A stretch of DNA of 64,000 nucleotides, from contig CBDCVR010000014.1 of the NCBI GenBank assembly GCA_965223155.1, forward strand, positions 544,001-608,000. The letters are read 5' to 3'. The first letter of the stretch is position 1, and every line of letters starts with the position of its first letter. Made by a program: the position numbers and the translations under genes. Source of the stretch: Candidatus Multivoradales bacterium (GTDB lineage: Bacteria; Acidobacteriota; Thermoanaerobaculia; Multivoradales; JAHEKO01). Positions 17,674 to 30,439 of the stretch are shown here, one piece after another. Under the pieces are notes generated by a model. The model was not told the origin of the DNA, did not search any database, and saw only the letters and a program-made list of their open reading frames with translations.

Positions 17674-17747
17674 GAAATAGGGTGACAGGATACCTATCTC
17701 CTGCAGCCGGCCAACCGGAGAAATAGGTATCCTGTCACCCTATTTCT
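17674..17747. repeat. REP-like hairpin doublet (two inverted copies)
   Basis: GAAATAGGGTGACAGGATACCTAT and its exact 24-bp reverse complement. Each copy is itself a hairpin with loop GTGACAGGATA; located between convergent genes. Confidence 0.9.
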
Positions 17748-20446: not shown

Positions 20447-20899
20447 TCAGCGATCAGACTCACCGCCAAGTACTGCCACTTCGAGATCCGGAAAGCGGGC
20501 GAAGCCACGATCAAAAGTCGCCAGCGTCAAACCCTCGGCCTGAGCAAACGCCGCCAGATACGCGTCCGTCCAGAACTTCGGCGAGGAACCATCCCGGCCA
20601 CATAGGACCGCGAGCCTTGGTTCCAGTCCCTCGGGCTCCTGCGCGAAAGCCACGGCTCGCTGTGAGGCTGCCTGCTCGTAGACCGTCCAAGCTTCGCGGA
20701 TCGTCCGCCTGGCAGGTCCCAACACCCGCTCGTTGGTCAGCAGCCGGAGCAAGCCCAGCTGCGTCAAGCGACAGAATACGACTCGCCCGCCCGCCGGGAG
20801 AACCTGGCCCCGCCACCAAGCCAGGGCTTCTTCGTGATGCGGATGCTCGGCGACGACGGAAGCCAGCCAGACGTTAACGTCGGCTAGGAAGTTCCGCAT
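20447..20899 (-). CDS. vapC: VapC-family PIN toxin
   Basis: LADVNVW...TDAYLAAFA...LATFDRGF PIN motifs. Confidence 0.9.
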   Translation of the reverse strand: MRNFLADVNVWLASVVAEHPHHEEALAWWRGQVLPAGGRVVFCRLTQLGLLRLLTNERVLGPARRTIREAWTVYEQAASQRAVAFAQEPEGLEPRLAVLCGRDGSSPKFWTDAYLAAFAQAEGLTLATFDRGFARFPDLEVAVLGGESDR

Positions 20900-21188
20900 C
20901 CGCCTCGTCGCCTTCGGTAAGGATCTCGTCGATTCTGTGTCCGTCGATCGCGCGAAGCTCGGCTGTGGTTTCACCCAGTATCAACGGCAGAACGCAGTCC
21001 TCGGCAAGGGCGGAAACATCCGGTGCAAAAGCCACTTCGGACTCACGCACTTCGCCTGGACGTGCCCATCCGTACAGCGCCTCCCGGAGTGCAGCCTCGA
21101 CAAACTCCCTGAGCTTCATCCCCTGAAGTGCGGCGCGGGCTTTGACCTGCCGGTAGAGCTCGTCGGGAAGATCGACCGTTGTCCGCAT
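20874..21188 (-). CDS. RHH antitoxin (VapB-like)
   Basis: MRTTVDLPDELYRQVKARAA ribbon-helix-helix; overlaps the toxin start. Confidence 0.85.
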   Translation of the reverse strand: MRTTVDLPDELYRQVKARAALQGMKLREFVEAALREALYGWARPGEVRESEVAFAPDVSALAEDCVLPLILGETTAELRAIDGHRIDEILTEGDEADAELPSRR

Positions 21189-21469
21189 AACCACATATTA
21201 GCATATTTCCGTGTACCGTAGGCGACCCTGACCGATGTTCCCCGCTCGAGGCCGATTCCGCCTGGGAGGCACTGCGCAACACGCCCGAGTGGGACGAGCT
21301 TCTGGCCTCGTTGCCTGACGGTTGACTCCGCTGAAGACTCGGACAGATCGCGCGGCAAATCTGGGAGACAGGGTGACAGATGAGATGAGTCGGTCGGTCT
21401 CCAGCTGGGACACTGTGCCAGTTGGAGATAACCAAGAATCGGCATCAGAGCCGAGAAAGGAGACCGACC

Positions 21470-22483
21470 ATGGAGTATCTTGGCATCGATGTTCACTCGA
21501 AGTACAGCGAGGTGTGTGGCGTATCAGAAGACGGTGAGGTGACGGTTCGCCGGCGGGTTCCGACGACCGAGACGGGCCTGCGAAGGTTCTTCGCCAATCG
21601 GGAACGCTCGCAGGTGACGCTCGAGAGCGGTCCGGTCACACCCTGGGTCTATCGACTGCTGTCTGAGCTCGGCCATGAGGTGATGGTGGTCAATCCACGC
21701 CGGGTACGTCTGATCGCGGAATCGACCCTGAAGACGGACGGAATCGACGCCGAGATCCTGGCTCGTTTGAGCCGGTTGGATCTGGGTTTGCTTCGACCAG
21801 TCTACCAGCGCACAGGTGAGGCCCAAGAGCTTCGGACGCGTCTTCGGGTCCGAACGAGTCTGGTGAAGACCAGGACCTCGCTGATCAACTCCGTACGCGG
21901 AACGCTGCGGGCACAGGGCTACCGAGTGCCCTCATGTCCGGCGAAGAGCTTCGTGGCTCGGTACGCGTCGATGTCGGTCGAAGCCGGCCTGTTGGGAGCG
22001 CTCGAACCTCTGGTAACGACAATCGGCGAGCTGACCGATCGGATCCACCATCTCGAAGACGACCTCATCTCCGAGTCGAGATCAAACGAGCTGGTCCGTC
22101 GGCTGCAGACGGTTCCTGGTGTGGGGCCTCTGGTGAGCCTTGCGTTCGTCGGCTGGATGGATCGTCCGGATCGGTTCGAGAAAAGCCGCGACGTCGGAGC
22201 GTGTCTGGGCTTGAGACCGTCGCTTCGCAGCTCAGGAGGGCATGAGGTCAGGGGCCGGATCACTCGCGAGGGCGACTCGGAGATGCGCAGACTCTTGGTG
22301 CAGGCAGCTCATGCGGCGTTGAACTGTCGCAAAGAGTCGTCACTCAAGAGATGGGCTGAGGGCCTGGTCGAGAGGCTGGGTAAGGGCAAGGCCGTGGTCG
22401 CGCTAGCTAGGAAGATCGCGGTGTTGCTCCACAGGCTGTGGGTGACAGGTGAGAGCTTCCGAGCCTTTCCCAAGGCAGCGTAG
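21470..22483 (+). CDS. IS110-family DEDD transposase/recombinase
   Basis: LGIDVH, LESG, KTDGIDA, VPGVG, SSGG (catalytic Ser region), ARKIA motifs; AAGGAG RBS. Confidence 0.97.
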   Translation: MEYLGIDVHSKYSEVCGVSEDGEVTVRRRVPTTETGLRRFFANRERSQVTLESGPVTPWVYRLLSELGHEVMVVNPRRVRLIAESTLKTDGIDAEILARLSRLDLGLLRPVYQRTGEAQELRTRLRVRTSLVKTRTSLINSVRGTLRAQGYRVPSCPAKSFVARYASMSVEAGLLGALEPLVTTIGELTDRIHHLEDDLISESRSNELVRRLQTVPGVGPLVSLAFVGWMDRPDRFEKSRDVGACLGLRPSLRSSGGHEVRGRITREGDSEMRRLLVQAAHAALNCRKESSLKRWAEGLVERLGKGKAVVALARKIAVLLHRLWVTGESFRAFPKAA

Positions 22484-22527
22484 AAGAGATAACTAGACGA
22501 CCAACAAGCAAGGACGGATTGAGAGGT

Positions 22528-22662
22528 TCGATGACTCCGAAAGTATCCTTGGTGGCCCCGACACCGTGTGACAGATGGGAGCATCGATTCCTAAACGGAC
22601 GCAAAACTCACCATGCACCGGTTCAAAGAAGAACCCTACAGAGTGCGAATAGAAGCTCGTCC
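22528..22662 (+). ncRNA. Predicted bridge/seek RNA of the IS1111 element
   Basis: Stem TCGATGACTCC/GGAGCATCGA encloses GTATCCT and GTGACAG (target guides). A second stem GGACG/CGTCC encloses CTCACC and ATAGAAG (donor-junction guides). Confidence 0.75.
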
Positions 22663-22825
22663 CAAGCCTCGATCCAAACCTAAGGAAAACTACAAAAAGA
22701 AGAAACGAAACTCTTGACGCCAACCGACCGACTCATAGAAGGATGCCTGTCTTCTTGAGGCTACCGACAGGCCGGCTGGTCCGCCCCGAGTTGCCGCCAA
22801 GGGCCGGCTCGCCCGTCCATCCAAA

Positions 22826-22853
22826 GGATAGGGATCCTGTCACCCAAGTTTTC
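22826..22853 (-). repeat. REP-like repeat copy (inverted partner of the IS-interrupted copy)
   Basis: ATAGGGATCCTGTCACCC, a 17/18 match to ATAGGTATCCTGTCACCC at 17723. Confidence 0.8.
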
Positions 22854-22881
22854 CTTATCTCCGGCGGATCGCCAGCCGCCA

Positions 22882-23712
22882 TCAAGGTCGGCGGAACGCG
22901 AGACTGTAGATCTCGTACTCCTCCAGAGCAGTCGCAAGCAGACTTCGGCCTACAAAGGCGATGCCGCTAACGCGGACTCCAGGCAGCCGGAACCGTTCCT
23001 CGATCCGACCGTCGCCATCCAAGGCGTAGAGGTTGTACTCGTCGGCCGACCAGAGCCGGCTTCCGTCCCAGGTCACGGCGGCAAGGCGCCCGGCGCCCAG
23101 GTGCTGAAATCCGTTCACTGCCACAAGTCGAGACTTGTCTTCGATCCGCAGCCGATGGACGGTGTTGGTGCCGGCGTCCGCGACAACTAGATGCGTCCCG
23201 TCGAAGGTCAGGCCGGCAACGTCCCAGACCTCCGGCGGCAGTGGAGCGCGCGTCCATCCAAGAAATACGAACTTCTCTCGATTTTCGACCGAAACCGAAC
23301 CGATGCCAGGAACGTGCGTGAACCCTTGAAGCTGGTGCGGCGCCGTGTGCGCCCAAAAGGCGGTCTTTCCGAACTCGGGCACGCCACGGTCCAAGGGAAA
23401 CTCAAAGATGGCGAGATCTCCCGACGCAAGGATCCACTTGCGCTCGCTCTCATACTCGAGATCGTTCAAGAGAAGACGACCGCGCTGGCTCGATCCAGGA
23501 ACCGAATAGGTTCTGACCAGCTCGAGGCTGGCGGGCTCGACTCTCGGAGGCGGTATGCGAGCCGCGGGTGGCGTCGCCGCCGATTCCGCCGCCGACCCCG
23601 GAAGCCCATCGCCGCACCCGACGAGTGCGATGGCGATGCTGACCACGGCACATGCCGAGGCTGCAGTCTGGAGCCCAGCCAAGCGACTCCTGGGCCCGAG
23701 GTCGACACGCAT
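22882..23712 (-). CDS. Hypothetical lipoprotein, beta-propeller-like
   Basis: LVGC lipobox; repeated GLTFDG/AVTWDG/GIAFVG blade motifs. Confidence 0.65.
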   Translation of the reverse strand: MRVDLGPRSRLAGLQTAASACAVVSIAIALVGCGDGLPGSAAESAATPPAARIPPPRVEPASLELVRTYSVPGSSQRGRLLLNDLEYESERKWILASGDLAIFEFPLDRGVPEFGKTAFWAHTAPHQLQGFTHVPGIGSVSVENREKFVFLGWTRAPLPPEVWDVAGLTFDGTHLVVADAGTNTVHRLRIEDKSRLVAVNGFQHLGAGRLAAVTWDGSRLWSADEYNLYALDGDGRIEERFRLPGVRVSGIAFVGRSLLATALEEYEIYSLAFRRP

Positions 23713-30409: not shown

Positions 30410-30439
30410 GCAGGATGAGTATCCTGTCACCGCTTCTGC
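30410..30439 (-). repeat. REP-like repeat copy
   Basis: GTATCCTGTCACC core (30419-30431) inside a GCAG/CTGC stem; between convergent genes. Confidence 0.65.

Follow-up and report, generated by a model that had tools for sequence, protein, structure and literature searches.

An IS1111-group insertion sequence from an Acidobacteriota bacterium with a predicted RNA matching its host-repeat target and its own ends

Introduction

Guide RNAs for the recombinase have been predicted in 93% of the catalogued IS1111 elements (Durrant et al., PMC11208160), and earlier papers describe both RNA-guided IS1111 elements aimed at host repeats and natural re-aiming between relatives (PMC11187229 sections 9, 10 and 14; PMC11208160). 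Within this subgroup, the roles of the long form of the RNA and of its second loop are still treated as open in PMC11187229. Here we describe an element of this kind from Candidatus Multivoradales bacterium (Acidobacteriota), located at 21378-22739 of a 64,000-nucleotide stretch of contig CBDCVR010000014.1 (assembly GCA_965223155.1, positions 544,001 to 608,000 of the forward strand). This whole stretch is referred to below as the window, and positions are given within it unless a contig is named. A model working from the sequence of the window had proposed that the element is a natural RNA-guided recombinase with a defined target and donor (the original prediction). The analysis presented below indicates that it is very probably an intact, recently active IS1111-group element whose recombinase is aimed by an RNA of its 3' non-coding end.

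Results

Architecture of the element and its recombinase

The recombinase gene is the sole long open reading frame of the element, running from an ATG at 21470 to a stop codon at 22481-22483, with AGGAG located 7 nt 5' of the ATG. Pfam domain analysis identified DEDD_Tnp_IS110 (PF01548) in the N-terminus (8.6e-25, 87.8 bits against a cut-off of 29) and Transposase_20 (PF02371) in the C-terminus (4.5e-21, 75.5 bits against a cut-off of 21.3). The transposase of IS621 (PDB 8wt6) aligns with the recombinase at E 5e-10, placing D7, E52, D90, D93, and S255 opposite the IS621 catalytic residues D11, E60, D102, D105, and S241, with the roles of the latter taken from PMC11208158. S255 lies within GLRPSLRSSG (residues 247-256), which fits the motif GL-P----S(t)G that, together with a length of 330-350 aa, is given for IS1111 transposases (PMC11187229 section 6). 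Identity to plasmid-borne IS110-family recombinases in general is about 35-37%, and at most about 37%.

The ends of the element are equally characteristic. Subterminal inverted repeats of 7-17 bp are reported for the IS1111 group (PMC11208160), and a perfect pair falling in this range is present here (Table 1). The non-coding ends are unequal, with 92 nt on the left (21378-21469) and 256 nt on the right (22484-22739), so that the element has the long non-coding region 3' of the gene that distinguishes the group. Every one of these listed features was found, and on its sequence the element is assigned to the IS1111 group of the IS110 family. Domains, catalytic residues, ends, and architecture all bear out the IS1111-type element originally predicted at 21378-22739, and every coordinate given in that prediction agrees with the sequence.

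All copies occupy the same position of a repeated sequence

The genome that contains the window (G000; 15 contigs, 4.0 Mb) holds 14 full copies of the element at 100% identity and one copy split by another element, along with two copies of an 82%-identical variant, termed variant B, and one 42-nt left-end fragment. All 15 copies share one orientation within GGTGAC/AG..AG/GATAC, where slashes mark the junctions, and GGTGAC occupies the end of the left flank in every one. Because AG is found at both junctions, the site can be read as GGTGAC-AG-GATAC, its 2-nt core being AG, or CT on the opposite strand. Comparing the flanks of other copies had been proposed as a check on the original prediction; with 15 of 15 in the same site, no copy was found at an unrelated sequence. 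Excising 21378-22739 brings GAGACAGGGTGAC next to AGGATGCCTGTCTTC, confirming that removal of the element restores a copy of the local repeat.

The window copy alone reads AGGATGC at its right flank, while AGGATAC is present in 14 of the 15 copies. The single mismatch that had been taken as a hint of tolerance is thus real, and AGGATGC would pair with GUAUCCU through one rU·dG wobble. As it concerns 1 of 15 copies and may have arisen by later mutation, it supports tolerance weakly.

Two sites were recovered in both occupied and empty form. For the empty site at 30419-30431, the occupied allele is C11:2928-4289, and the flanks of the two agree perfectly over 225 bp (left) and 2966 bp (right). 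The empty site at C14:366085 has its occupied counterpart in the split copy on C7, where perfect agreement extends over 1371 and 289 bp. Each pair of alleles differs by exactly the element plus one AG, which fixes where the element begins and ends and argues for recent movement. The sampled population is polymorphic for insertions of the element, and the small contigs are alternative forms of chromosomal loci.

These data also bear on whether the element might be a fossil whose copies spread earlier and of which nothing is active now. Consistent with such a view, no circle or excision joint was found over 20900-23200 in the contigs of four DNA runs from one study, although contigs rarely keep such forms; the contigs of those runs contained the element at multi-copy depth, with many other flanks as loose ends. 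In view of the open reading frame in 14 copies that are 100% identical, and of presence/absence alleles of two sites within one assembly, we regard a fossil element as very unlikely.

The split copy (C7:10443-13184; locus L015 2500-3807, minus strand) is broken at element position 961-971, and its halves overlap by 11 bases. The insert within it is about 1.37 kb long and encodes a 435-aa Mutator-family (IS256-like) transposase (PF00872, 1.8e-65).

A covarying two-stem-loop RNA is predicted 3' of the recombinase gene

The right non-coding end contains a predicted RNA composed of a target-binding and a donor-binding stem-loop (Table 1). The basal stem that had been proposed for the first loop is part of the minimum-free-energy fold and encloses both target guides.

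In a sample of 401 genomes from the phylum, 27 had a recombinase homologue at E <= 1e-40, among them G000 and the unpublished G152. A search of contigs with the recombinase protein returned one close locus, L020, from another genome, with 85% protein identity and a record labelled Acidobacteria. A covariance model (R1) comprising 32 pairs was built from the aligned 3' regions of the element, variant B, and L020, and in an unfiltered search it matched directly 3' of the recombinase gene in most of 29 loci. A second search covered the window and 21 of the 29 loci, leaving out those that were partial or weak (L028, L029, L038, L039, L040, L046, L047) and one duplicate (L049). At E <= 0.001, 17 of these 22 sources matched, with no match in L022, L027, L032, L035, or L043. 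Of the 21 related loci, 16 thereby had the RNA immediately 3' of the gene, and 14 of these 16 are distant orthologues of 35-56% protein identity.

In the alignment of the 17 matching sequences, standard pairs filled 94.4% of cells, compared to 32-46% after sliding the partners by 1-3 columns. Changes on both sides were observed in 24 of the 32 pairs, and none of 500 shuffles reached the observed values. Within the first loop, 91% and 97% of cells were paired in helices 1 and 2, and 12 of 16 pairs change on both sides; the corresponding values for helices 3-5 of the second loop were 87%, 98%, and 99%, making its apical helices the best paired of all. RNAalifold, applied to the same alignment, independently recovered 24 pairs, 18 of them with double changes. 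Folding, proposed as a check on the original prediction, returned its stems in the minimum-energy structure, and the covariance model built here is supported by covariation across orthologues.

The first loop changes together with the flanks of the element

The two segments proposed as left and right target guides, GTATCCT and GTGACAG, were compared with the flanks of all copies in G000. GTATCCT is exact to the flank in 14 of 15 copies and GTGACAG in 15 of 15, the latter consisting of the last 5 bases of the left half-repeat (GTGAC) and the core AG. The top-strand match lies 5' of the bottom-strand match and both overlap at the insertion point, which is the guide order reported for IS1111 seekRNAs (PMC11187229 section 9).

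For the orthologues, junctions were set by conserved end motifs alone, and 7 bases per junction were compared with each side of the first loop. The right flank (as reverse complement) agreed with the 5' side of the loop at 6/7 or better in 13 of 14 cognate pairings but in only 5 of 218 non-cognate ones, and the left flank agreed with the 3' side at the same level in 10 of 14 cognate versus 7 of 218 non-cognate pairings. The copy flanks, this covariation, and the re-aimed sister element described below all support the target guides of the original prediction.

One orthologue, L034 (in G209), has an AA core in place of AG at both the left and right junctions, and the change is carried by three of the four guide segments, namely both target guides and the right donor guide.

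Variant B is aimed at a different repeat

Variant B has the same ends as the element and an identical second loop, together with the first-loop guides AAAGGGT and GTGCCAG. Empty B-type sites with the same extended flanks as its insertions (C4:9446 and C14:185512) read GTGCC-AC-CCTTT and GTTCC-AC-CCTTT. The guides of B have changed together with its target, and B is therefore aimed at a different repeat, GT[G/T]CC-A[C/G]-CCTTT. Natural re-aiming of this kind is already in print for the ISEc11/ISXne4 pair (PMC11187229 section 10).

Joint change of guide and flank, between proteins that remain 82-85% alike, bears on the alternative that the target is chosen by the protein, or by pairing of single-stranded DNA as in IS200/IS605, with the loop matches not being read as RNA at all. 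A covarying fold would suit a structured DNA strand as well, and reading it as RNA is our interpretation. However, relatives of both subgroups are reported to co-purify with RNA and to need it (PMC11187229; PMC11208158), and the recombinase keeps the same domains and catalytic residues as these RNA-dependent relatives. We consider target choice independent of RNA to be very improbable.

The B insertions also raise the question of core identity. The B target core is AC and the donor core AG; the 5' guide (AAAGG-GT) fits AC and the 3' guide (GTGCC-AG) fits AG. The B copy with AG on the left and AC on the right displays the pattern that a 2-nt staggered exchange across unequal cores would leave. 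It is conceivable, if doubtful at present, that in this subgroup recombination can join donor and target of differing cores, and that the two guides of one loop are programmable for different cores, a reading that draws on two insertions and two empty sites. If true, a matching core would be no strict rule in IS1111-type systems, and the range of addressable sites would be widened. In addition, the B copy in GTTCC, where the guide reads GTGCC and a related empty site also reads GTTCC, lends weak independent support to tolerance of one mismatch.

Two further observations concern sequences shared with B. The lone 42-nt left-end fragment lies by a B copy (C13:299287-299328) and ends exactly after GTGCC. 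It might be the trace of B-guided recombination inside another copy, although its junction, GTGCC-CC, has no AG core. Separately, the leader of the recombinase gene contains a conserved left-end hairpin, TCTCCAGCTGG / CCAGTTGGAGA (21398-21428), which includes GTGCCAG, identical to the 3' guide of variant B.

The second loop covaries with the ends of the element

The original prediction also held that ATAGAAG in the second loop matches the circle junction, and this segment, the right donor guide, was found to covary with the element ends. It agrees with the right end plus core at 7/7 in 11 of 14 orthologues and at 6/7 in the other 3. It follows an A-to-G change, with ATAGA accompanying CATAGA and ATGGA accompanying CATGGA, and reads AA at the core where the core of the element is AA (L034). 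The partial left guide predicted as CTCACC is likewise real and covaries: it fits at 4-5/5 in 10 of 13 orthologues, with CTCA accompanying ATGAG, CCCA accompanying ATGGG, and CCTTA accompanying ATAAGG. It is, however, short, pairing over about 4 bases without covering the core. Donor loops were predicted in IS1111-group RNAs by Durrant et al. (PMC11208160), and the finding that the second loop varies in step with the element ends in 14 orthologues argues for such a donor-binding loop here.

A narrower role for the RNA should nonetheless be considered, in which only the first stem-loop, as a short seekRNA, acts as a guide, while the protein reads the ends through the subterminal repeats and the likeness of the second loop to these ends arises incidentally, perhaps from the demands of processing or folding. 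For ISEc11, an 82-nt RNA with target matches only is reported to have moved a mini-IS better than the 154-nt form (PMC11187229), and the role of the long form is called unestablished by the authors (PMC11187229 sections 10 and 14). ISPpu9 is reported to have transposed without its downstream small RNA (PMC12288879). Together with the short left donor match, and with a basal stem of the second loop that is the weakest of the stems (87% paired) and the sole one missed by RNAalifold, these reports favor the narrower role and count against an RNA that reads both target and donor. Set against them are the agreement of the 3' side of the second loop with the right end and core, which persists through the A-to-G and AA changes, and the high pairing of the apical helices in a loop type already predicted for the group. 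On balance we judge a guide limited to the first stem-loop to be unlikely, though less so than the other alternatives weighed here, and retain the interpretation that both loops are read.

The target lies at the center of a host repeat

The 13-mer GGTGACAGGATAC occurs exactly three more times in the window and once more with 1 mismatch. At up to 2 mismatches the window contains 5 matches, compared to 0.65 expected, and 0 of 100 shuffles reach 5. Across G000 there are 17 further occurrences of the empty, intact 13-mer, often forming inverted pairs 45-90 bp apart, and the window copy of the element occupies one arm of such a pair. These empty copies and the shuffles support the original claim that the occupied site is a host repeat.

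The 13-mer was found in 16 of 24 other genomes of the bacterial family, with up to 68 copies (G409), while a reversed control pattern gave 0 in every one of them. The recombinase was absent at E <= 1e-40 from the three further genomes of that family in the sample. The 13-mer belongs to the host and is not a footprint of the element, which is younger and less widely distributed, and the target GGTGAC-AG-GATAC is the center of an imperfectly palindromic host repeat.

In relatives (e.g., G413 C9:1706080-1706349), the 13-mer mostly forms inverted pairs 34-70 bp apart and is sometimes arrayed in tandem, with 5-6 units. Two ideas about the repeat were rejected. A pattern of variable stems with a conserved loop was not borne out, as cognate arms pair at 5.69/10 and arms of different copies at 5.48/10; there is no per-copy compensation between arms, and the palindrome therefore belongs to the consensus of the repeat family. 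A link to a REP-associated tyrosine transposase was dismissed because no 13-mer lies beside the one Y1_Tnp gene of G000; near this IS200-like gene (C14:32014-32367) there is 1 match with 3 mismatches, which is chance level.

A possible promoter at the circle junction

ISEc11 reportedly possesses a junction promoter, Pjunc, as known from a cited title. The outward TTGAC of the element described here recurs in 14 of 14 orthologues whose right end could be recognized, lying 14-15 nt before CAT[AG]GA in 13 of them. When the ends are joined by eye, GAAGAT, made up of the right-end GA, the core AG, and the left-end AT, falls 17-18 nt after TTGACN, whereas the integrated copy reads GAAGGA at this position. 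The conserved outward TTGAC fits a junction promoter. For TTGACG at 22714, originally put forward as such a promoter, position and conservation stand, whereas its promoter function is something we infer from the arrangement of the joined ends. Junction promoters are reported for the IS110 family (PMC11208158), although ISPpu9 is reported not to form one (PMC12288879). A terminator scan of the integrated element gave one terminator-like site, on the other strand and at chance level.

Feature coordinates and neighboring genes

The features of the element, its target, and variant B are collected in Table 1. Just upstream of the insertion, two overlapping minus-strand open reading frames (20447-21194; 175 aa and 106 aa) resemble, by eye, a PIN-type toxin and its antitoxin.

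Table 1. Coordinates of the element, its predicted RNA, the host repeat, and the related sites (window positions unless a contig is given)
Feature	Location	Strand	Remarks
Insertion sequence, 1362 bp	21378..22739	+	Counted with one AG core copy (21378-21379)
Second AG core copy	22740-22741		Directly after the element
Left subterminal inverted repeat ATGAGTCGGTCGGT	21385..21398	+	Inverted match to 22723-22736, perfect over 14 bp
Right subterminal inverted repeat ACCGACCGACTCAT	22723..22736	+	Read from the sequence
Recombinase gene, 337 aa + stop	21470..22483	+	Pfam domains, alignment to IS621 transposase
Predicted bridge (seek) RNA region	22508..22675	+	Limits of the covariance model; target, then donor stem-loop
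Target-binding stem-loop (predicted)	22528..22587	+	In the minimum-free-energy fold; covariation
Basal stem of first loop	22528-22538 / 22578-22587		Apical hairpin 22550-22566
5' target guide GTATCCT	22543..22549	+	Complementary to the + strand of core and right flank, AG-GATAC
3' target guide GTGACAG	22568..22574	+	Identical to left flank and core; pairs with the bottom strand
Donor-binding stem-loop (predicted)	22597..22662	+	Basal stem 22597-22601 / 22658-22662, apical hairpin 22614-22647
Right donor guide ATAGAAG	22650..22656	+	Last 5 bases of the right end, plus core
Partial left donor guide CTCACCA	22607..22613	+	First 4 bases complementary to left-end positions 2-5
Outward -35-like TTGACG	22714..22719	+	Near the right end
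Left half of interrupted host repeat GAGACAGGGTGAC	21365..21377	+	GGTGAC here in 15/15 copies
Right half of interrupted host repeat AGGATGCCTGTCTTC	22740..22754	+	Starts with the second AG core copy
Inverted partner of the 13-mer, GGTGACAGGATCC	22832..22844	-	1 mismatch; 93 bp downstream
Empty inverted 13-mer pair	17681..17739		17681-17693 (+), 17727-17739 (-)
Empty target site	30419..30431	-	Occupied allele on another contig of the assembly, C11:2928-4289
Variant B copies	G000 C15:372320-373685 and C13:297857-299222		Loci L016, L017; outside the window
Variant B, copy one			Left junction GGTTCC/AG, right junction AC/CCTTT
Variant B, copy two			Left junction GGTGCC/AG, right junction AG/CCTTT

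Discussion

Proposed mechanism

The present analysis shows family membership, the element ends, insertion that is specific in site and orientation for 15 of 15 copies, a conserved and covarying fold, and guides that covary with the flanks and with the element ends. The flanks, the covariation, and the sister element support the original proposal of a natural RNA-guided recombinase with a defined target and donor. In such a system, a recombinase comprising a DEDD RuvC-like domain and a serine-bearing Tnp domain would be directed by a two-stem-loop RNA, whose strand would be transcribed, probably as the 3' portion of the message for the recombinase. In the first loop, the partner of GTATCCT would be the top strand of AG-GATAC and that of GTGACAG the bottom strand of GTGAC-AG, and the overlap of these guides on the AG core (CT on the other strand) would fix both the site and the orientation of insertion. 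In the second loop, ATAGAAG and part of CTCACCA may base-pair with ..CATAGA-AG-ATGAG.., the ends as joined in the excised circle. The circle itself would form with the predicted joined ends CTCATAGA-AG-ATGAGATGAG, and TTGAC, together with the junction-spanning GAAGAT at a 17-18 nt spacing, could then drive expression from the circle.

Besides the points already raised in connection with the second loop, several results weigh against this proposal. The fold energy of the lone sequence is ordinary (z = -0.72), so that the structure is supported by covariation and not by energy, and the alignment from which covariation was measured was fitted to the model and composed of good-match loci, which favors the structure. 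A search of Rfam 15 gave no family match, returning unrelated hits at chance level (E 0.76-7.9). Among the orthologues, agreement between guide and flank falls below 6/7 on the left of L026, L034, L025, and L031 (5/7) and on the right of L042 (4/7). A scan of the integrated element for sigma-70-like promoters returned 0 sites. A search for RNA runs that contain the sequence of the element listed none, and transcription of the RNA strand, which we infer from the family, and the ends and processing of the RNA are counted on this side as well.

Significance

The element would provide a readable natural RNA-guided recombinase, with target, donor, ends, and guides defined, from a phylum that has been little sampled for such systems. 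With 15 independent insertions, presence/absence alleles, and a re-aimed sister in one genome, it makes a convenient comparative case for IS1111. The element, or a close relative, might already be included among the predicted bridge RNAs in Supplementary Table 5 of PMC11208160 or in the target logos of PMC11187229. With internal controls of unusual completeness, it is a very clean specimen, yet an ordinary one, of a mechanism described in 2024, and it leaves the known picture unchanged. Its one small step past the literature is comparative evidence for the second loop as a reader of the donor ends in the IS1111 subgroup.

Comparison with known systems

IS4321/IS5075, of the IS1111 family, are said to target the terminal inverted repeat of Tn21-family transposons, in work attributed to Partridge and Hall in 2003. 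Like the element described here, they have subterminal repeats and enter a repeated sequence at one position and in one orientation; they differ in that a Tn21-family repeat is targeted, as opposed to a host repeat. ISPpu9 and ISPpu10 of Pseudomonas putida likewise insert into host palindromic repeats (PMC12288879; PMC11208160), and the small RNA of ISPpu9 is reported to be dispensable and separately mobile (PMC12288879).

According to the accounts of IS621 (Durrant et al. 2024, PMC11208160; Hiraizumi et al. 2024, PMC11208158), that element has in common with the present one a DEDD and serine recombinase of the same chemistry, an RNA (predicted in the present element) with two loops that each read both strands about a CT core, a repeated palindromic host target, and a promoter rebuilt at the circle junction, which in the present element is a possible feature only. 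They differ in the position of the RNA, which lies 5' of the gene in IS621 and 3' of the gene here. The present element also has long, 14-bp subterminal repeats, a reversed guide order relative to the gene, and a left donor guide that does not cover the core.

The closest likeness in form is to ISEc11/ISXne4 (Siddiquee et al. 2024, PMC11187229), which share a recombinase of ~340 aa with GL-P----SG, subterminal repeats, a long non-coding region 3' of the gene, the guide order, and re-aiming between close relatives. The two differ from the element described here in their target and in host phylum, the record of the relative of the present element being labelled Acidobacteria. For ISEc11 the role of the second loop is left open in PMC11187229, whereas here the second loop clearly covaries with the ends of the element.

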